This document shows, in pieces, positions 1,786 to 39,978 of a stretch of 64,000 bases of DNA (its first letter is position 1; each line of letters begins with the position of its first letter). The translations under genes were made by a program, and so were the position numbers. The stretch lies in NCBI RefSeq assembly GCF_988243305.1, contig NZ_OZ547136.1. One strand, given 5' to 3'. The notes under the pieces were generated by a model. It saw only the letters and a program-made list of their open reading frames with translations. It did not search any database and was not told the DNA's origin.

Positions 1786-2931
1786 TTATGATGAGAACTC
1801 CTGGCGAATTTGTTCCCCATGTTGGTCGAGCGTTGCCGCTCCCGGCATAACATGCGGGTCCGCGCAGCCGCTGATTTTTATCGGATTACCTGGCATCATT
1901 ATTCCCCCGGCTTCAATCAACATATTTCTCGCCTGAGTTTGTGGCAAATTAATGGCCTCAGCCACACTTAATAACGGCGCGACGGGCACACCAACTTCAT
2001 GTATTTTGGCTAACCAAACTTCAGCTGCCTGCGTTTTTAACGTTCGCTCAATATATTGTTTAAGAATAGCCTGGTTTTGTACGCGTAAAATATTGCTGCT
2101 AAATCGGGGATCATTAACCAGTTCCGTAAGCTCCAGTGCCTGGCATAACGCAGAAAAAAGCTTGTCATTACCACAACAAATAGTAATCGGCTTATCCTGA
2201 GTATCAAAAACATCAAAAGGTGCCATGTAGGGATGGCGATTTCCCAGGCGTTGTGGTGACTTCCCTGTCGCAATATATGCCATCAGACCATGCTCCAGAA
2301 AACTCAGCGTGGCATCAAACATCGCTATATCGACATGCGCCCCTCTCTGGCTCTTTTCGCGGCCATAAAGTGCACTCACTATTCCGCTGAATAAATAGAC
2401 ACCGCCACATAAATCCGCAAGAGAGGTACCCACGCGCACTGGCGGAGCATCAGGGTACCCTGTTTCCATCATTATCCCGCTCATTGCCTGAATGATGGTA
2501 TCGTAGGCTGGAGCATCTTTTAGCGGGCCGGTATGCCCAAAACCTGACGATGAAGCATATATGAGACGCGGGTTGATTTCTTGTAGCGTTTCCCATGAAA
2601 ACCCCAGTTTTTCCATTGTACCTGGGCGAAAATTCTCAGCTAATACATCAGCTTGTTTAAGCATATTTATAAATATACTTTTATCGTGATCATTCTTTAA
2701 ATCAAGAACCACACTCTCTTTGCCATGATTAATAAAACTGTAATAGAGTGACTGTCCATCCACATAGGGACCAAATGTGCGGGTATCATCACCATGACCC
2801 GGCGGCTCAACTTTAATTACCCTTGCGCCCATATTACAAAGAAGTTGAGTTCCGAAAGGTCCATTAAGGACATGTGTCATATCGATAACTAATAAGCCTT
2901 CAAACGGCCCTTTGCATTCATTATTTGTCAT
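1786..2931 (-). CDS. yfdE: Acetyl-CoA:oxalate CoA-transferase, family III CoA-transferase
   Basis: ORF 1786-2970; translation matches family III CoA-transferases (CaiB/BaiF-like). I prefer the ATG at 2931 (MTNNECKGPF...) over the upstream GTG at 2970. Confidence 0.85.
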   Translation of the reverse strand: MTNNECKGPFEGLLVIDMTHVLNGPFGTQLLCNMGARVIKVEPPGHGDDTRTFGPYVDGQSLYYSFINHGKESVVLDLKNDHDKSIFINMLKQADVLAENFRPGTMEKLGFSWETLQEINPRLIYASSSGFGHTGPLKDAPAYDTIIQAMSGIMMETGYPDAPPVRVGTSLADLCGGVYLFSGIVSALYGREKSQRGAHVDIAMFDATLSFLEHGLMAYIATGKSPQRLGNRHPYMAPFDVFDTQDKPITICCGNDKLFSALCQALELTELVNDPRFSSNILRVQNQAILKQYIERTLKTQAAEVWLAKIHEVGVPVAPLLSVAEAINLPQTQARNMLIEAGGIMMPGNPIKISGCADPHVMPGAATLDQHGEQIRQEFSS

Positions 2932-2945
2932 TTGCTTATGCCTTG

Positions 2946-2976
2946 AAAAAAGCCGAAGGTGAAAAGACACTTCGGC
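2946..2976 (-). terminator. Stem-loop plus U-tract between yfdV stop and yfdE start (intra-operon terminator or attenuator candidate)
   Basis: On the minus strand, GCCGAAG-loop-CTTCGGC is followed by TTTTTT. It sits between the yfdV stop (3005) and the yfdE start (2931). Confidence 0.5.
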
Positions 2977-3004
2977 ATTTATGTAAAATCAATAACATGA
3001 TTAA

Positions 3005-3949
3005 TTATGAAACCAGTCGACTGACATAAATCCACAAAGGAGCCGTGACGACAAAGCCCAGTACGCTCACAGCCAATGATGCTGTACCAGTGCGGGTGTA
3101 GACATTAAACCGGCTGGCAATAATGATTCCGGAGAATGCCGGCGGTAAGGCGCCTGCCAGTACCATCATCTGCAAATGTTCGCTGTTCAAATGACATGCC
3201 ATACCCACGAGAAGCAGCGCCAGTGGCATCAGAATCAGCTTCAGGAAGGTGTTATAAGCAATTTCAGCACTGAACTCGAATTTATGTGCAGCCAGAGTCA
3301 ACCCCGCAGCGAATACCGCTACCCCTGAGTTAGCCTTCGCAATCAGATTAAAGGTTGGGTCCCATGCTGCCGGAATTTTTACCCCAACCAACACCAGGAT
3401 CGTTGCCAGAACAGGTGCCCATACTACTGGCTCCTTTGCCGCAGAAATTAATGCGCTCAGATTACTATTCTTCTTACCATCTGCTCCTGAGGAAGGATTC
3501 AGCAAATACAGACCAATAGGAATAGTAATTGCGTTAACAATAATAGAAATAATTGCTACAACTAAACCTGTTGATACGGAATCACCATAAATAGGATCGA
3601 GAACTGCAAATCCCAGGAATCCGATGGTAGGTGAACCTGCAATTAATGCACATACTGCTGCTTCTGCATGAGTACGTTTAAAAAATTTGTAGCAACCAAA
3701 CCAGGAGAAAAAGAAACATCCGACAATAACCACAAGTGATACAAGGGTCAGGCGAGTGTCCGCAAAAATCATTTCCCTGTTTGCCCGGGTAATAGAAACA
3801 AATAGGGCCGCAGGAAGAGCGTAGTTTAATACCAGTTTATTAAATGCCCGGGCTTGATCTTCTGAAAAAGTTTCTCGTCTGCCGCTAAAATAACCCAACA
3901 GCATGATTACGATAATAGGCAATAAATCGCCAATAAAAAATGTTAGCAT
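3005..3949 (-). CDS. yfdV: AEC-family (auxin efflux carrier-like) membrane transporter, putative oxalate/formate-linked
   Basis: 314 aa polytopic hydrophobic ORF; sits in an operon between oxc and yfdE. Confidence 0.85.
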
Positions 3950-5765: not shown

Positions 5766-7016
5766 TCAGATGGCGTGGTTTTGCTTCATTGCAGCAATTT
5801 CATCGTCGCTATAACCCAGCTCCTGCAATACCACAGCGGTATGTTCACCTAATAGCGGCGCAGCTTTAATATCCGGCGTAAAGGCAGAGAATTTCATTGG
5901 ACAACCAACTGTCAGATATTTTCCACGCAACGGTTGTTCCACTTCAACAACACTGCCACTTTGGCGCAAAGAGGGATCAAGTGAAATTTCTTTCATACTT
6001 AAAACCGGTGCACAAGGAATATCAAACTGAGTCAAATAGGCCACTGCTTCATGTTTATCAATAGTGACAGTGTATTTTTCGATTTCAGCAAAAATATCGA
6101 AAATATGTGGCTGTCGGGCATGGGCTGTACTGTATGCCGGATCGGTAATCCAATCTGGTTTGCCGATGGCTTTACAGGTGTTTTCCCAGTTTTGCTCCTG
6201 AATAGTGAAATAAATATAGGCATTAGGATCGGTTTCCCAGCCTTTACATTTCAGGATCCAGCCAGGCTGACCGCCACCACCCGCATTACCACCGCGGGGA
6301 ACTGCATCACCAAATGTGCCATTCGGATACTGCGGGTATTCTTCCAGATAACCCAATTTATCGAGACGCTGCTGGTCGCGTAATTTCACGCGGCAAAGGT
6401 TCAATACGGCATCCTGCATTGACATGGTGACTCGTTGCCCACGCCCCGTTTTTTCGCGATGCAGCAAAGCAGCAAGTAAACCGATCAGTAAATGCATTCC
6501 GGTGTTGCTGTCACCCAACGCTGCAGCGCTTACCAGCGGCGGACCGTCCCAAAACCCCGTAGTGGATGCCGCGCCACCCGCTGCCTGAGCAACGTTTTCA
6601 TAGGCTTTTACATTCACATAAGGCGAACACTCATCAAACCCTTTGATCGAACCAAAAATCAGACGTGGATTGATTTCTTGAATATGCTCCCAGGTGAAGC
6701 CCATGTGATCAATGGCCCCTGGATGAAAGTTCTCGACTAAGATATCAGCTTCGCGGATCAGCTTTTCCATTACCTCTTTGCCTTCCGCTGTTTTGGTATT
6801 TAATTCAATAGAACGTTTGTTACTGTTAAGCATGGTGAAGTAAAGCGCATCGATATCAGGAATATCTCGCAGCTGGTGACGCGTTACGTCACCAACGCCG
6901 GGACGTTCAATTTTAATGACGTCAGCGCCAAACCAGGCCAGCATTTGAGTACAAGATGGGCCAGATTGCACACCGGTGAAATCGAGAACTTTAATTCCTT
7001 GAAGTGGAGTTGACAT
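5766..7016 (-). CDS. frc: Formyl-CoA:oxalate CoA-transferase
   Basis: 416 aa family III CoA-transferase immediately upstream of oxc in the same orientation. Confidence 0.9.
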
Positions 7017-7267
7017 AGCAATACCTATTAGTTAATTAAATATATGTTAATTTAGCGTTTATTTAAGGCATAACGCCCTCTATAAATAATCCGCAAAATA
7101 TCGTCGTAGCTGCACTCGATATTTTTAAATTCCTGTATCAAGTGCTGAAAATCATTTCATCGCCACTTCCAATTCCTTTCTGCATGGTAAGTAGTGAGGA
7201 CGAAAAGAAGAATATGATAAATATTGGTTCGCGGTAATCAGAGAGAGCCGCGACATTTGTGATGTTA

Positions 7268-7285
7268 TTCTTACAACTGTAAGAA
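7268..7285. promoter_or_regulatory. EvgA-box-like inverted repeat TTCTTACA-AC-TGTAAGAA upstream of frc
   Basis: Perfect 8-2-8 palindrome matching the EvgA consensus (TTCPyTACA N2 TGTAPuGAA), about 250 bp upstream of the frc start. Confidence 0.6.
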
Positions 7286-7528
7286 GCGCCGGTGATTTAC
7301 AAGTAAGGGTATGATTACGCCTTTTAAAGCGTACCATAAAACATAACATAATAAATGATTTGTGATGACACGGGATTATTGCGGTTTACTTTGAGGAAGA
7401 TAAAATGCGAGTTTATAGAACCGCGAGCGCCAAATAATTTTATGACCACAACCTGTCGTATTGTGGTCATAAAAAATTGTCGGCTGGAGGGAGTTAAATC
7501 CTTTACCTCAATATACTGCCTGTCAGCG

Positions 7529-8161
7529 TTAGTTCACAAACAGTGCTTCGCTATCGACGATGATTCCATCTTCCGCACCTTTAAGCGCCAGGTTTGCCTC
7601 GTAGTATTGCTTTTTATCAAGCAGTTTCTGCGCATCAGCAAGTGCATTACGAGTCTGTTTGAGCGGCATCAGATATTGGTTTTCCATTACGCCAACACCG
7701 GCCAGGCGCAGCTCTTCCATTGCGCCCTTTTTATCCCCTTTCGCCATTTTTTCGTTGGCAATTTTTATCGCGGCTTCTTTTTCGGGTGTCGCTACATAAC
7801 TCTCAGAAATTCCGACAGATGCATTAATGACAATATATTGGTCATCATTGACATTGGTCTTTTTACCTGGCTTAGCGAACTTTGCCCATTCGGTACTGTC
7901 ATCTGACAACAAAGCTGAAGCTTCATTGGTCAGTTCTTTTGCCTTTTCCGGATCGCCATGAAACAGAGCCAAGCGCGCTACCTGCACGTCACGCATCGCA
8001 TATAAACCTTGTTCAGAGATACGCTCTGCTGCTGCCGTTTTCTGGGTTTGCTGAACTTGCTGAGTTTGCTGTTGTGCCGCTACCGGTGCATTATCAGCCG
8101 CCCATACAGTTGAAGATGCCAGAATTGCTGTGACCATCGTAGCCATAATTAAACGTTTCAT
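7529..8161 (-). CDS. yfdX: YfdX-family periplasmic protein (EvgA-induced)
   Basis: 210 aa ORF with an N-terminal signal peptide ([21 protein letters not shown]) and a Q-rich region. Confidence 0.8.
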
Positions 8162-34051: not shown

Positions 34052-34127
34052 GGGTGATTAGCTCAGCTGGGAGAGCACCTCCCTTACAAGGAGGGGGTCG
34101 GCGGTTCGATCCCGTCATCACCCACCA
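34052..34127 (+). tRNA. valU: tRNA-Val (anticodon UAC)
   Basis: GGGTGATTAGCTCAGCTGGGAGAGCACCTCCCTTACAAGGAGGGGGTCGGCGGTTCGATCCCGTCATCACCCACCA (76 nt). Confidence 0.95.
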
Positions 34128-34171
34128 ACTACTTTATGTAGTCTCCGCCGTGTAGCAAGAAATTGAGAAGT

Positions 34172-34247
34172 GGGTGATTAGCTCAGCTGGGAGAGCACCT
34201 CCCTTACAAGGAGGGGGTCGGCGGTTCGATCCCGTCATCACCCACCA
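34172..34247 (+). tRNA. valX: tRNA-Val (anticodon UAC)
   Basis: Identical 76 nt sequence, second copy. Confidence 0.95.
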
Positions 34248-34293
34248 CTTTCTCGCCAGCTAAATTTCTTGTAAAAATGTGAAGTACCGAAGT

Positions 34294-34369
34294 GGGTGAT
34301 TAGCTCAGCTGGGAGAGCACCTCCCTTACAAGGAGGGGGTCGGCGGTTCGATCCCGTCATCACCCACCA
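34294..34369 (+). tRNA. valY: tRNA-Val (anticodon UAC)
   Basis: Identical 76 nt sequence, third copy. Confidence 0.95.
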
Positions 34370-34373
34370 CTTC

Positions 34374-34449
34374 GGGTCGTTAGCTCAGTTGGTAGAGCAG
34401 TTGACTTTTAATCAATTGGTCGCAGGTTCGAATCCTGCACGACCCACCA
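34374..34449 (+). tRNA. lysV: tRNA-Lys (anticodon UUU)
   Basis: GGGTCGTTAGCTCAGTTGGTAGAGCAGTTGACTTTTAATCAATTGGTCGCAGGTTCGAATCCTGCACGACCCACCA (76 nt). Confidence 0.95.
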
Positions 34450-34454
34450 ATGTA

Positions 34455-34480
34455 AAAAAGCGCCCTAAAGGCGCTTTTTT
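34455..34480 (+). terminator. Terminator of the val/lys tRNA operon (AAAAAAGCGCCctaaaGGCGCTTTTTT)
   Basis: Perfect hairpin with flanking A-tract and T-tract immediately after lysV. Confidence 0.85.
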
Positions 34481-34586
34481 GCTATCTGCGATACTCAAAG
34501 ATTCGAACCTGCAGCAGGTTCGAGTTGAGCGCAGCGAAACAACGGAGCCGCTCGCGGCGACGGCCCGAAGGGCGAGCGAAGCGAGT

Positions 34587-34645
34587 CATCCTGCACGACC
34601 CACCAATGCAAAAAAGCGCCCTAAAGGCGCTTTTTTGCTATCTGC
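34587..34645 (+). repeat. Direct repeat of the lysV 3' end (from the T-arm) plus its terminator; tRNA-Lys 3' remnant
   Basis: ATCCTGCACGACCCACCAATGcAAAAAAGCGCCCTAAAGGCGCTTTTTTGCTATCTGC duplicates 34431-34488 with one mismatch; preceded by GCAGGTTCGAG and an inserted GC-rich segment. Confidence 0.7.
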
Positions 34646-34715
34646 AATTTGCGAAATTGCCTGATGCGCTTCGCTTATCAGACCAACTATGTCCGGCAGT
34701 TCCCGTGCCTCTCAT

Positions 34716-35600
34716 CTACTGCGCCAACGCCGCCAGCAGTTTAACCATCGCGGGCGTCACCTGCTGTGTTTCATAAACAATATATAAATCTGCAGGGATG
34801 CGCTGTTTGAGCGGACGGAAAATGACACCTGGCCAGTTCATTTGTGCGTAGCTGTCCGCTATCAATGTGATACCAATGCCCATACTGACCATAGCGAGTA
34901 CCGTTTGCGGTTCATTAACTTCGCGAATAACAACCGGTGAAAATCCCACCTGCTGGCAAACTCGCTGCAAAAAATCCCAGTCAGTGTAAACGGGCGGCAT
35001 TGTAACGAAATACTCGTCACCTAGCGCTTCCAGCGGGACGGTGGAAAATGATGAGAGATGATGCTCTTCAGGCATCGCCACCAGAAACGCCGATTCATGC
35101 AACCGTAAGCTGGTAAAACCTGCCGGTGGTTCTGTCGCCATTCTCCAGATTCCGGCATCGAGTTCACGTCGTTCCAGCAGGGCCATTTGCATCGCGGGCA
35201 TCTTTTCGCGAAAAAGAACGTCAACGTTAGGATTTTCCCTGAGGAATCGCCGCATAACCGGGCGCATCCGTCCCCACATTGCCGTTCCCACAACCCCGAG
35301 TTCAATCCGCCCTGCTTCTCCCCGACCTATTTGTTCAACCCGAGCCAATACATTATTTGCATTCACCAGCAATCGACGCGATTCTTCCATCAAGATTTTG
35401 CCCGCATGTGTCAGTACGACGCTGCGCGAATGGCGAATAAAAAGCTGCGTGCCGAGTTGATTTTCCAGCTCTTTAATATGAATACTGAGCGGAGGCTGAG
35501 ACATATTTAAACGCGCTGCTGCGCGACCAAAATGCAACTCTTCCGCTACGGCAAGAAAATAACGGAGCAACTTAAGATCTGTTCTATATACGCGTTCCAT
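34716..35600 (-). CDS. xapR: LysR-family regulator of the xanthosine operon
   Basis: ORF 34716-35615; I prefer the ATG at 35600 (MERVYRTDLKLLRYF...). N-terminal LysR HTH. Confidence 0.85.
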   Translation of the reverse strand: MERVYRTDLKLLRYFLAVAEELHFGRAAARLNMSQPPLSIHIKELENQLGTQLFIRHSRSVVLTHAGKILMEESRRLLVNANNVLARVEQIGRGEAGRIELGVVGTAMWGRMRPVMRRFLRENPNVDVLFREKMPAMQMALLERRELDAGIWRMATEPPAGFTSLRLHESAFLVAMPEEHHLSSFSTVPLEALGDEYFVTMPPVYTDWDFLQRVCQQVGFSPVVIREVNEPQTVLAMVSMGIGITLIADSYAQMNWPGVIFRPLKQRIPADLYIVYETQQVTPAMVKLLAALAQ

Positions 35601-35851
35601 AATTAAGTGCTCCATATAATAAATACATCGTATTAAATTATCATGGCATAAAGTATTTCACCACCAGATATCCGACATACATAAACACGATGGATAATAT
35701 ACCCGGCAATACATTTGGAACAGGAATAGGTAATCGCACGATTGTAAACAAAGCACCAATGCCAAAACCAACGCCAGAAGAAAATAAAATATCTTTCACT
35801 AATTAACCTTTATCATAAAAGCAGCCCCAAGGAACAGAGCTGCGAATCCTT

Positions 35852-37108
35852 TTAATGTGTAACTGAACGATGCGTTATCTTTTCAGGGTCATGGTTATAT
35901 TTAAACCCAAAGAAAAATATCACTGCGAGGAAAAGAGCATACCCTGCAAACATCAGCCAAATGGTATGCCAGTCTTTTACGCCATCCACCGAAAAGTAAT
36001 CTACTGCCATGCCACTCAGAATCGAGCCAACCCATGCGCCGACACCATTTACCATGGTCATAAAGAGCCCCTGCGCGCTGGCACGAATGCTGGAATCAAC
36101 TTCCTGTTCGACAAATACCGAACCAGAAATATTGAAGAAATCGAATGCACAGCCATAAACAATCATCGACAGCAGCAGCAAAATAAATCCGGTTGTTGAC
36201 GGATCGCCATAGGCGAAGAAGCCAAAGCGCAGCGTCCACGCCACCATACTCATCAGCATGACGGTTTTAATACCGAAACGCTTCAAAAAGAACGGTATCG
36301 TCAGAATGAAACCGACTTCAGCCATCTGTGAAACTGACAGTAAAATGGACGGGTATTTCACCACGAAGCTATCAGCAAACTCAGGATTACGGGCGAAATC
36401 ATGCAGGAACGGGTTGCCAAAAACGTTGGTAATTTGCAGCACCGCGCCCAGCATCATGGCGAAGAGGAAAAAGATAGCCATGCGTGGATTTTTAAACAGC
36501 ACGAAGGCATCCAGACCCAGCTTGCTGGCAAGCGATGTAGTCGCTTTTTTCTCCGCAACCGGAATCTTCGGCAAAGTCAGCGCATAAGCCGACAGCAGCA
36601 ATGACGCACCGGACGCGATATACAGCTGCAGACTACTCAATTCCAGATGCAGCAGGCTTACTGCCCACATGGCGACAATGAACCCCACCGTACCAAAAAC
36701 GCGAATGGGCGGGAAAGCGGTCACCGGGTCAAGCCCTGCCTGGGCAAGACAGGAATAAGAGACGCTGTTCGATAACGCAATAGTCGGCATAAACGCCATC
36801 GCATTGACTAACATCACCCAAAACATCATATCCGGATCAGTTACGGATGCCGCATAAAAAAGTACGCCTGCACACACCAGGTGACACAGCATGTATGCAC
36901 GTTCTGCACGCAGCCATTTGTCTGCGATGATCCCCATTATACCAGGCATAATAATCGCGGCGATCCCTTTGGAACTGTAAACCATGCCAACATTAGCGCC
37001 GGTGAAATGAAGGGTATTAATCATGTAAGAACCGAGGGTAACCAGCCAGCTCCCCCAGATAAAATATTGCAAAAAGGACATTACCTTTAAGCGCAAAGCG
37101 ATGCTCAT
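35852..37108 (-). CDS. xapB: Xanthosine:H+ symporter (MFS, nucleoside:H+ symporter family)
   Basis: 418 aa ORF with 12 predicted TM segments, NupG-like. Confidence 0.9.
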   Translation of the reverse strand: MSIALRLKVMSFLQYFIWGSWLVTLGSYMINTLHFTGANVGMVYSSKGIAAIIMPGIMGIIADKWLRAERAYMLCHLVCAGVLFYAASVTDPDMMFWVMLVNAMAFMPTIALSNSVSYSCLAQAGLDPVTAFPPIRVFGTVGFIVAMWAVSLLHLELSSLQLYIASGASLLLSAYALTLPKIPVAEKKATTSLASKLGLDAFVLFKNPRMAIFFLFAMMLGAVLQITNVFGNPFLHDFARNPEFADSFVVKYPSILLSVSQMAEVGFILTIPFFLKRFGIKTVMLMSMVAWTLRFGFFAYGDPSTTGFILLLLSMIVYGCAFDFFNISGSVFVEQEVDSSIRASAQGLFMTMVNGVGAWVGSILSGMAVDYFSVDGVKDWHTIWLMFAGYALFLAVIFFFGFKYNHDPEKITHRSVTH

Positions 37109-37167
37109 AATCGTTTCCTTGTCGCATCATTTGGCCTCACCCGCGAGGCCGTTTCTTATTGTTTTTC

Positions 37168-38001
37168 TCAGGCAATTTTGCGCAGAAAGCCACAAATAAG
37201 GTTGATGAAGTTCTGCTTAGAGAGCTCCGCAGCCGCCAGCGTTTGCGCATGTGACAATTTCACATCGCTTAAACCTTCCGCCATGTTGGTAATCGCAGAG
37301 ACCGCAACGACTTTAAGTTCGCAATGGCGAGCAGAAATAACCTCAGGCACCACAGACATACCAACAACATCCCCACCAATAATTTGCATCATGCGAATTT
37401 CCGCCGCAGTCTCGAAATTCGGACCCGGATACGAGACGAACACGCCCTCCGTCAGAGGGAACCCCTCTTCTTTCGCCACTTTTTGTAACAGTGCGCGGTA
37501 TTCCGCATCGTAGGCATTCGCCAGCGAGAAGAAGCGCTCACCAAAACGTTCATCATTAAGACCCACCATCGGCGTTCCCGGCATGGTGTTGATGTGATCT
37601 TTCAATGCGACCAGACTGCCGGCCCCCACTTCAGGACGCAGTGAGCCAGCCGCATTGGTGCAGAACAGCAACTCGCAGCCCAGCAACTTAAAGGTACGGA
37701 TTGCATCCATCATGATGGTCATCCCACGACCTTCGTAGAAATGTCCGCGACCTTTCATGCACGCCACTGGCACCCCCTGAAGATAACCCAGCACCAGCTC
37801 ACCCGCATGACCGTGTACGGTACTTACCGGGAACCCAGGCAGCTTTTCGTAGGAAATTGCGACCGCGTTCTCAATCTGATCGGCCAGCGCGCCCAGCCCG
37901 GAACCTAAAATAAAGGCCACTCGTGGCGTGAAATCAGGTTTATAAGTCTTGATAATATCTACGCAATACAGTGGGTTATGAGAAAACTGAGCCTGATACA
38001 T
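37168..38001 (-). CDS. xapA: Purine nucleoside phosphorylase II (xanthosine phosphorylase)
   Basis: 277 aa ORF of the PNP/MTAP family I. Confidence 0.9.
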   Translation of the reverse strand: MYQAQFSHNPLYCVDIIKTYKPDFTPRVAFILGSGLGALADQIENAVAISYEKLPGFPVSTVHGHAGELVLGYLQGVPVACMKGRGHFYEGRGMTIMMDAIRTFKLLGCELLFCTNAAGSLRPEVGAGSLVALKDHINTMPGTPMVGLNDERFGERFFSLANAYDAEYRALLQKVAKEEGFPLTEGVFVSYPGPNFETAAEIRMMQIIGGDVVGMSVVPEVISARHCELKVVAVSAITNMAEGLSDVKLSHAQTLAAAELSKQNFINLICGFLRKIA

Positions 38002-38249
38002 ATATATCCTTTTTTTGTAGGGTGGAATCTAACGCCTTTTTATAACGAGATTGCCCTAACTCATACCAATACACTTTTTTCATGTATCCGATAGTTATTC
38101 GATATCGATATATTTATATTTTTTCACTATTAATAGGCGGAAAAAACTGTATTGGTACTCTCCTTTCCATTGCATTAACAATATGCCGCTTTTAATCAAC
38201 CTTTTTATTAAGCAATCAACTAATAACGATCGGCATAGGGAATTATGCT

Positions 38250-39014
38250 ATGAAAAAACATCTTTTTACTCTGACACTCTCTTCTGTATTGGCAATACCA
38301 GCAGTATCCCATGCAGAATTTAAAGGCGGTTTTGCTGATATAGGTATTCATTATCTTGACTGGACTAGCAGAACCACTGAGAAATCGTCGACCAAATCAC
38401 ACAAAGATGATTTTGGATATCTGGAACTGGAAGGTGGCGCTAACTTTAGTTGGGGAGAAATGTACGGGTTCTTCGACTGGGAAAACTTTTATAATGATCG
38501 TCATGATAAACCGGGTAGCGAGCAGCGTTATACATTTAAAAATACCAACCGTATTTACCTGGGTGACACCGGATTTAATCTTTACCTGCACACGTATGGT
38601 ACCTACGGGTCTGCGAATCGTGTGAATTTCCACGACGATATGTTCCTGTACGGTGTCGGCTACAATTTCACCGGCAGCGGTTGGTGGTTCAAACCGTTCT
38701 TTGCAAAACGCTATACAGACCAAACCTATTATACCGGCGATAACGGTTATGTCGCCGGTTGGGTTGCAGGTTACAGCTTTATGCTGGGCAGTGAGAAATT
38801 CACCCTCACCAACTGGAACGAGTACGAGTTTGATCGTGATGCCACCTACGCGGCAGGTAATGGCGGCAAAGAAGGTCTGAACGGTGCCGTCGCACTTTGG
38901 TGGAATGCAACTTCACACATCACCACAGGGATTCAGTATCGTTATGCGGATGACAAACTGGGCGAAGATTTTTACCAGGATGCAATAATCTACTCCATCA
39001 AATTTAATTTCTGA
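38250..39014 (+). CDS. yfeN: Putative outer-membrane beta-barrel protein YfeN (possibly a Tsx/OmpK-like nucleoside channel)
   Basis: 254 aa ORF with a signal peptide (MKKHLFTLTLSSVLAIPAVSHA), Tyr/Gly/Asn/Trp-rich composition and a C-terminal ...KFNF typical of OMP barrels. Divergent from xapA. Confidence 0.7.
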   Translation: MKKHLFTLTLSSVLAIPAVSHAEFKGGFADIGIHYLDWTSRTTEKSSTKSHKDDFGYLELEGGANFSWGEMYGFFDWENFYNDRHDKPGSEQRYTFKNTNRIYLGDTGFNLYLHTYGTYGSANRVNFHDDMFLYGVGYNFTGSGWWFKPFFAKRYTDQTYYTGDNGYVAGWVAGYSFMLGSEKFTLTNWNEYEFDRDATYAAGNGGKEGLNGAVALWWNATSHITTGIQYRYADDKLGEDFYQDAIIYSIKFNF

Positions 39015-39051
39015 TTGATTACTGCCGGGGCTCCCGGCAGTATGAATAGCT

Positions 39052-39978
39052 CTATATCTGATACAACGGATCCCCTTCCCGCCCAGCCATTAGCGCACGG
39101 CCCTGGCCTCGTACCACGTCCCATAACGCTTGTGCGGCGGTGGAAAGTGAACGGTTCTTCCTGCGCACCAGCATCAACTGGCGTTCCACCACCGGCGTAA
39201 TGCGCTTTACCACCAGCGGGCTACCTTCAGGTAACGGCAGCGCCAGTGCGGGAAGAATACTAATGCCGATGCCTGCGGCTACCATCGGGAACAGCGTCGC
39301 CGGATGACCAATCTCCTGCACAATATTCGCCTGAATACCGTTGCGCGCCAGCGCTGCGTCAATCAGCGGTCGGCTGCCTGACGCGTAATCCTGCAACACC
39401 AATTTCGCTCCCTGTAATGCCTGCCAGGGTACATAATCTTCCGCGGCCAAAGCGCTATCGCGATGGCAAAGCAAGAAGAAAGGCTCGGAAAGAATCGCTT
39501 CACATTGCAGATCGCCCACTGGGCCTGGATCGATGACGATGCCAAAATCGACATCTCCCTGGCGAATACTTTCCATCACCCACTGCTGCGGACGATCGTG
39601 CAGGATAAACTGAATATCTGGATAGCGGCGATGGCTTTCAGCAATGCATTGCGGAATAAGATGCGCGGAAATGGTCTGGCTGGCAGCGACCCGAACTTTT
39701 CCGCTCAGTTGTTGCCCCATACGCCCGGTATCGCGCAACGTGCTGTTAAGTTCATCCAGCAGTCGCTCAAGACGCAAAGCCAACTGCTGCCCTGCATCTG
39801 TAAGCACCACTTCACGCGTGGTTCTGTCCAGCAGGCGAACACCAGTATGATTTTCCAGCTCCTTCACACTGTGACTCACTGCCGACTGGCTCAGGCCGAT
39901 ACGCTCTCCTGCACGACTAAAACTTTTCTCCTGCGCTACTGTGACGAAAACCTTTAATTGTTTTAAAGAATAATTCAT
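39052..39978 (-). CDS. yfeR: LysR-family transcriptional regulator
   Basis: 308 aa ORF with an N-terminal LysR HTH ([32 protein letters not shown]). Confidence 0.8.

Follow-up and report, generated by a model that had tools for sequence, protein, structure and literature searches.

Does yfeN, the gene of an outer-membrane barrel protein located divergently beside the xanthosine genes xapA and xapB, supply the outer-membrane step of the pathway that these genes encode? The question is raised by a window of 64,000 nucleotides (contig NZ_OZ547136.1), the whole stretch of DNA that was analysed, which belongs to Escherichia coli and is not K-12. The open reading frame (ORF) at 38250-39014 on the plus strand, with an ATG start and 254 amino acids plus stop, was read from the window as yfeN. 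Genes xapA, encoding xanthosine phosphorylase (37168-38001; TIGR01699 XAPA, E 4e-160), and xapB, encoding a xanthosine/nucleoside:H+ symporter (35852-37108; PF03825 (Nuc_H_symport), E 9e-189; TIGR00889), are located on the minus strand. Position 38002 is the first base past the xapA start codon, and the region 38002-39014 comprises a 248-bp spacer and the yfeN coding sequence; the divergent arrangement described in the original prediction is thus present as stated. The evidence given below suggests, with a probability of roughly 0.6, that YfeN provides a mobile xap cassette with an outer-membrane nucleoside channel and is probably co-induced with xapAB.

The gene encodes a predicted 12-stranded outer-membrane barrel of the Tsx/OmpK family. 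Both features that had been named in support of an outer-membrane location, a signal peptide and a C-terminal phenylalanine, are seen in the translation, from which they were read by eye. Residues 1-22 (38250-38315, plus strand) form the signal peptide MKKHLFTLTLSSVLAIPAVSHA, followed by EFKGG; the basic n-region, the hydrophobic core and the AxA-type site (…SHA before EF) after residue 22 correspond to the Sec pattern, which places the probable cleavage site there. The C-terminus …YSIKFNF, with alternating aromatic and hydrophobic residues and a terminal Phe, corresponds to the beta-signal pattern of outer-membrane proteins (OMPs), and the terminal Phe is nearly invariant in the subfamily alignment.

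Profile search showed a match of YfeN to PF03502 (Channel_Tsx) over the full length of the model (positions 2-244 of 244; 151.7 bits, E 4e-44; gathering cut-off 27.2 bits), and the NCBIfam equivalog PRK11528 matches as well. PF03502 is present in all 120 YfeN homologues listed, with the exception of one fragment. In RefSeq the protein is named 'nucleoside-specific channel-forming Tsx family protein' or 'outer membrane protein OmpK', thousands of E. coli genomes there have the same gene annotated under the name yfeN, and YfeN has been described as a putative Tsx-family outer-membrane protein (PMC7797564). The family membership that the original prediction had proposed for a check by profile search therefore holds, although it was already standard annotation and did not need to be presented as pending. 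The AlphaFold2 (AF2) model, built from a 20-sequence alignment, has 12 strands (predicted local distance difference test, pLDDT, 88.5; predicted template-modelling score, pTM, 0.82); residues 2-19 form an N-terminal helix of low confidence, and the strands of the barrel begin at residue 24. In a Foldseek search with this model, the best solved structure was Tsx 1TLW (E 8e-9; TM 0.64-0.69), in agreement with the Tsx-like fold that had been expected. Comparison of YfeN with Tsx by BLASTP was not significant (best E 0.024 across 33 aa), phmmer of YfeN against PDB sequences gave no match, and the subfamily profile against PDB sequences gave weak NanC matches (E 0.03) and did not retrieve Tsx. Since direct sequence comparisons with Tsx failed, membership in the Tsx family rests on the broad Pfam profile and the fold. 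YfeN is a distant paralogue of Tsx, and its assignment to the Tsx/OmpK family and fold is practically certain.

Across the YfeN subfamily, from Enterobacteriaceae to Budviciaceae, 47 positions are invariant. Splitting of the strands by face assigned 28 invariant residues to the side of higher polarity, presumed to face the lumen, and 11 to the lipid side. In the predicted model, the lumen face would carry, among others, the invariant aromatic residues F28, W38, F55, F74, Y112, Y116, F150, W171, Y175, F177, W189 and W217 and the invariant ionisable residues E59, E61, D76, E78, R93, K97, K148, E191 and R231. The Tsx channel is narrow and contains aromatic pairs flanked by ionisable residues, which form the nucleoside-binding sites Nuc0-Nuc2. 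The predicted pattern in YfeN appears to fit this design as it is generally known.

The connection of yfeN with nucleoside genes was assessed in a survey of genera, in which one genome per species was scanned and 80 loci were returned. All homologues of at least 70% identity, which were found in Escherichia, Pseudocitrobacter, four Citrobacter, Phytobacter, Entomohabitans, two Limnobaculum and Pragia, adjoin xapA-xapB-xapR, even where the right flank is unrelated. The same xap-yfeN order is present in Salmonella, with which the arrangement covers eight genera of two families. At loci with a homologue of at least 64% identity (n=13), xap genes are located alongside in all but Budvicia. The cluster of Limnobaculum and Pragia has the order xapR-deoC-xapX-xapB-xapA<>deoB-like-yfeN, and the yfeN gene of Rahnella (64% identity) is followed, in the same orientation and after 45 bp, by a Nuc_H_symport gene with 66% identity to XapB. 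The xap-linked YfeN proteins form one clade in a neighbour-joining tree without bootstrap. Among homologues of 43-48% identity, nucleoside loci were found in three further genera, namely deoR<>ompK-nupC-deoC-deoA-deoB-deoD in Vreelandella, nupC-ompK-deoC-deoA-deoB-deoD in Shewanella, and two Tsx-family genes adjoining deoD-deoB-deoC in Endozoicomonas. In Vibrio cholerae, ompK is repressed by CytR along with udp, cdd and nupC (PMC4581735).

Within E. coli, yfeN behaves as a part of the variable 4.4-kb cassette xapR-xapX-xapB-xapA-yfeN (34660-39050). In comparison with the window, homology of O157:H7 ends near 34659, right after three tRNA-Val genes and tRNA-Lys, and restarts at 39051, one base short of the yfeR stop, so that the five genes are absent from O157:H7 exactly, as one block. 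Besides xapA, xapB and yfeN, the cassette contains xapR (34716-35600, minus strand), encoding the LysR-type activator of xapAB in its RefSeq-annotated 294-aa form (PF00126 and PF03466; NF007439, 529 bits), and the 52-aa xapX/DUF1427 (35641-35799, minus strand; TIGR03510 XapX, E 6e-18). Of 5426 complete E. coli genomes, 4089 contain yfeN and 4088 contain xapBA, and about a quarter are without the cassette; 4055 genomes cover at least 80% of a probe that runs from the 5' end of xapA across yfeN up to the end of yfeR. Thus, yfeN is gained, lost and conserved together with the xap cassette, with Budvicia and one recombinant E. coli lineage as the exceptions.

The third line of evidence is the architecture of the spacer. 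In the latter lies an inverted repeat with arms of 18 nt, one at 38064-38081 and the other at 38140-38157. The arm facing yfeN, GAAAAAACTGTATTGGTA (38140-38157, plus strand), ends in a -35-like TTGGTA, and 19 nt past this box lies the -10-like hexamer AACAAT (38177-38182, plus strand) of a proposed yfeN promoter. The arm facing xapA, GAAAAAAGTGTATTGGTA (38064-38081, minus strand), is identical to the yfeN copy at 17 of 18 positions, likewise ends in TTGGTA and lies 19 nt from the xapA -10 hexamer TATAAA (38039-38044, minus strand), of which TATAA is invariant in the eight-genus alignment. Between the boxes a perfect palindrome, TCGATATCGA (38099-38108), was read from the sequence as a candidate regulator site. 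When up to three mismatches were allowed, the 18-nt box had two matches only in the 64-kb window, against 0.08 expected; one faces each gene, and the orientation is alike relative to xapA and yfeN. An AGGGAA resembling a Shine-Dalgarno sequence, kept in aligned close relatives, is located 7 nt 5' of the yfeN ATG (38237-38242, plus strand).

The proposal of a yfeN promoter comes from cross-species footprinting. The core [G/A]TATTGG was found 100-185 bp upstream of yfeN in 14 taxa, and an A/T-rich -10-like hexamer (TAACAAT, TAATAAT, TATTAT, TAAAAT and others) follows the box after 18-19 nt in 14 of 14. The core of the xapA-side box is kept in 12 of 12 sequences, most of which also keep the TATAAA spacing, with the SCPM locus of E. 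coli as a clear exception. In the spacer alignment of close relatives, a conserved block GATA…GATATCGAT was found, and longer palindromes take the place of the central one in Pragia and Limnobaculum. The position of the xapA-side box fits what is known of PxapAB, namely that its -35 is overlapped by one XapR site and that another is located further upstream (PMC7205307), and the 18-nt box is accordingly a putative XapR site. We propose that yfeN may have its own promoter, a mirror of PxapA, composed of the 18-nt box, a weak -35 TTGGTA, a 19-nt spacer and a -10-like hexamer. Joint switching of yfeN and xapA is probable because the proposed yfeN promoter mirrors PxapA.

Under the explanation that we prefer, YfeN would be exported by the Sec system, inserted by the beta-barrel assembly machinery (BAM) and reside in the outer membrane as a monomeric 12-stranded beta-barrel of the Tsx/OmpK family. 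As the product of the fifth gene of the accessory cassette, it would serve as the entry step for purine nucleosides, xanthosine included, which XapB would then carry over the inner membrane and XapA would phosphorolyse; expression of yfeN and xapA would start jointly, with XapR and xanthosine as the most plausible trigger. The parts of this explanation differ in strength. That YfeN conducts nucleosides is likely; control of yfeN by XapR or xanthosine falls somewhat short of an even chance, and selectivity for xanthosine is doubtful. Similarly tentative is the fuller proposal that yfeN genuinely belongs to the XapR regulon, with PxapA and PyfeN as mirror-image copies of one activator-dependent module flanking the central palindrome. 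If so, one xanthosine signal would turn on the outer-membrane channel, the inner-membrane symporter and the phosphorylase.

Several observations weigh against this explanation. In about 70 loci, of Yersinia, Xenorhabdus, Photorhabdus, Proteus, Providencia, Morganella, Moellerella and Plesiomonas, homologues of 54-63% identity are flanked by ampG and cyoA and have no nucleoside genes in their vicinity. In Budvicia, yfeN is present without xap, between modE and a modF-like gene. In the E. coli strain SCPM-O-B-8794, xapRBA are 71-78% identical to the window and yfeN with the right flank 92%, which indicates a recombination breakpoint near the start of yfeN. A generic sigma-70 scan of 37900-39150 called no promoter for yfeN, nor for xapA; a miss of this kind is expected if PxapA and PyfeN are weak, activator-dependent promoters. 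The distal box may be merely the second XapR site, serving xapA. In the searched literature, no expression, binding or transport data for YfeN were found, and the references to it are passing ones: the Keio yfeN mutant had no phage phenotype and no BASEL phage depended on yfeN, the substitution S121P had no effect in a study of cellobiose (PMC7797564), and a Yersinia pestis Crp study and a carbamazepine study mention yfeN in lists only. Tsx is present in E. coli in any case, and for xanthosine at millimolar concentrations the general porins ought to be enough, which would account for the fact that yfeN was never required in xap genetics. The functional link between yfeN and xap claimed in the original prediction gains support beyond adjacency, from co-presence and co-absence, synteny over eight genera and the shared box, while the ampG-cyoA homologues and Budvicia speak against a 'dedicated' channel in the strict sense.

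Several of these points also support the alternative that survives best, namely that YfeN is a general nucleoside or small-solute channel, redundant with Tsx, which was co-transferred beside xap and is free of XapR control, with the distal box serving xapA only. The need of PxapAB for two XapR sites, one of them upstream (PMC7205307), could be satisfied by the distal box; the housekeeping context of the sister clade between ampG and cyoA, the retention of yfeN alone in Budvicia, the xapA/yfeN breakpoint in SCPM-O-B-8794 and the AT-rich spacer (34% GC), typical of silenced acquired DNA, point in the same direction. However, the box core and the fixed spacing of the hexamer are kept upstream of yfeN in Limnobaculum, Pragia, Rahnella and Budvicia, all of which lack xapA as the divergent neighbour of yfeN; deoB and a GC-rich hairpin precede the yfeN box in Limnobaculum and Pragia. 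The distal box is therefore more likely to be a part of a yfeN promoter than just an upstream site of xapA. The identical orientation of the boxes relative to the two genes and the near-perfect co-occurrence in E. coli (4089 versus 4088) also speak against a channel free of XapR control, which we consider unlikely.

Considerably less probable is a role of YfeN as a surface receptor for phage or colicin, as an adhesin-like or structural OMP, or as a non-nucleoside channel, with nutrient uptake not its main role. Tsx and Vibrio OmpK are classic phage receptors (for T6 and KVP40), and OmpK is discussed in the literature as a vibriophage receptor; the subfamily profile has weak similarity to NanC, and the split of yfeN into two major alleles in E. 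coli is unusually deep, with a synonymous divergence (dS) of 0.57 versus 0.07-0.10 for yfeR, yfeH and xapR in the same comparison. The ratio of nonsynonymous to synonymous divergence (dN/dS) between these alleles is, however, 0.031, and the proteins differ at 10 residues, of which three belong to the signal peptide, with no sign of diversification of surface loops. The conserved residues are predicted on the lumen face and not in loops, the gene recurs within loci of nucleoside transport and catabolism in at least four unrelated lineages, and the BASEL result cited above gives this role no support. In view of this dN/dS and the few residue differences, phage-driven diversifying selection was rejected as an explanation of the dimorphism. 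That yfeN is decaying or cryptic, as the lack of a known phenotype, several shorter YfeN-like clusters in the protein database and the occasional broken neighbour (an xapB frameshift in strain 2018-01-1CC, an internal stop in O157 yfeR) might suggest, is highly improbable, since the gene is under strong purifying selection, dN/dS of only 0.031 over dS 0.57 rules out pseudogene decay, yfeN is full-length (at least 80% coverage) in 4070 genomes, and the protein is conserved from Enterobacteriaceae to Budviciaceae with its 47 invariant positions.

Comparison with known systems places the preferred reading, YfeN as the nucleoside channel of the xap cassette, in context. Tsx of E. coli, the nucleoside-specific channel (PDB 1TLW/1TLY; TC 1.B.10), shares with YfeN the PF03502 domain, the signal peptide, the C-terminal Phe, the conserved aromatic and ionisable residues on the presumed lumen face, and genomic or regulatory ties to nucleoside uptake. 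It differs in sequence (about 13-15% identity in structural alignments) and in length, 294 aa versus 254 aa, from which shorter loops follow for YfeN; moreover, tsx is a stand-alone core gene controlled by CytR and CRP (PMC3454398), whereas yfeN is a gene of an accessory cassette, located by xapA and preceded by a different box. OmpK of Vibrio resembles YfeN in length and in the RefSeq name given to YfeN and its homologues, and is likened to it by its loci, as homologues of 43-48% identity lie inside nupC/deo loci and V. cholerae ompK is one of the nucleoside-regulon genes under CytR. In contrast, the YfeN clade is paired with XapB of the nucleoside:H+ symporter (NHS) type and with the trimeric-type phosphorylase XapA, not with NupC and DeoD, and the likely regulator of yfeN is a LysR-type activator, not CytR or DeoR.

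In LamB/mal, ScrY/scr, BglH/bgl, NanC/nan, KdgM and ChiP, the gene of a specific channel is located beside the genes of the transporter and the first catabolic enzyme and is co-induced with them. The placement of yfeN beside its catabolic genes follows the same design principle. These channels belong to other families and folds (16- or 18-stranded trimers for LamB, ScrY and BglH), NanC and KdgM being among the next-best structural matches of the YfeN model; for LamB, ScrY and the others co-induction is proven, whereas for yfeN it is inferred.

The spacer has also been reported in connection with another regulator. In a study of HusR (YnfL), a peak of genomic SELEX (systematic evolution of ligands by exponential enrichment; gSELEX) was located in the xapA-yfeN spacer, and yfeN was listed as a possible target only; a HusR-dependent stationary-phase increase was reported for xapA and none for yfeN. 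Two K-12 HusR motifs map to 38042-38057 and 38452-38467 of the window. The motif inside yfeN (38452-38467, GGGGAGAAATGTACGG) is intact, and the spacer motif, TAGCGAGGTTGTCCCG in K-12 and TAACGAGATTGCCCTA in the window, has four mismatches and overlaps the stretch between the proposed -35 and -10 of xapA.

To the right of yfeN, the convergent yfeR is followed by yfeH, ypeB and ligA. The possibility of yfeR as the regulator of yfeN was set aside; it is convergent with yfeN, divergent from yfeH, and stays in O157, which has no yfeN. Between the convergent genes, a GC-rich hairpin with a stem of 8-9 bp and a 3-nt loop is located at 39022-39040 (minimum free energy, MFE, -18.6 kcal/mol; z -3.2). 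The terminator scan of 37900-39150 called no terminator, and this hairpin has no T-run; it may act as a bidirectional terminator of yfeN and yfeR. The O157 deletion junction lies about 10 bp past it.

At the left edge, the cassette adjoins three tRNA-Val(UAC) genes and tRNA-Lys(UUU) at 34052-34449; clusters of tRNA genes are well known as places where genes are gained and lost. Region 34430-34660 contains short repeats, annotated as RtT small RNA (sRNA) in E. coli strain 2018-01-1CC. In O157:H7, the place of the cassette is taken by about 400 bp (7605-8011 of its locus) encoding a 113-aa 'FlxA-like family protein', the gene of which overlaps the end of yfeR slightly; yfeR is annotated there as a pseudogene with an internal stop. 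The membrane-like 52-aa XapX/DUF1427, located between xapR and xapB, accompanies the cassette in most genera with 67-100% identity. In strain 2018-01-1CC, xapB is annotated as frameshifted (1957-3209 of its locus), while xapA, xapR and yfeN are intact, and parts of the cassette can thus decay independently. The search for plasmid carriage was uninformative, since the five 'plasmid' matches include clearly chromosomal records of 4.9 Mb and 1.4 Mb.

Comparison with strain 2018-01-1CC showed that region 37600-39200, covering the 5' part of xapA, the spacer and yfeN, exists in E. coli as two deeply diverged haplotypes, between which the spacer is 81.5% identical and the proteins are about 96% identical. 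The yfeN of the window is matched at 99% or above by one of the 5426 complete genomes (strain NY1601); about 1640 genomes have 95-99% identity and about 2330 have 90-95%. The K-12 sequences given in PMC12844172 correspond to the other allele, not to that of the window. The split could be an old balanced polymorphism or an import from another species. In SCPM-O-B-8794, xapRBA are Citrobacter-like, and an extra Nuc_H_symport gene (6500-7760 of its locus, minus strand; 62% identical to XapB) is located between xapA and yfeN, divergent from the latter, with paired CCAATAC…GTATTGG boxes between the two (7801-7896).

In Limnobaculum and Pragia, a deoB-like metalloenzyme gene is located between xapA and yfeN, which makes the locus a more complete island for the catabolism of purine nucleosides. 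The insertion site is flanked by modE and a modF-like gene, and yfeN is all that Budvicia has there. In L. allomyrinae, deoC is split into two ORFs. In one of the Limnobaculum and Pragia loci, the features concerned are at 2783-3588 and 6265-7494 of the locus.

As it stands, the finding is an ordinary one, because the gene, family and position of yfeN are already known as standard annotation. What is added here is comparative evidence for yfeN as a part of the xap cassette, together with a proposed promoter model of mirrored 18-nt boxes, which was not found in the searchable literature. If the preferred reading is true, it would give a first function to YfeN, the product of one of the remaining y-genes of E. 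coli, and the xanthosine pathway would be complete from the medium to the cytoplasm, through YfeN, XapB and XapA, with XapR in control. The outer membrane is left out of quantitative models of the xap switch (PMC7205307, for example); if yfeN belongs to the XapR regulon, an outer-membrane step, and possibly an extra positive feedback, would join the bistable switch modelled with xapAB only. An inducible channel could matter at low xanthosine. The case would, in addition, illustrate neatly how a small 'selfish' cassette that moves horizontally can bring along an outer-membrane pore of its own.

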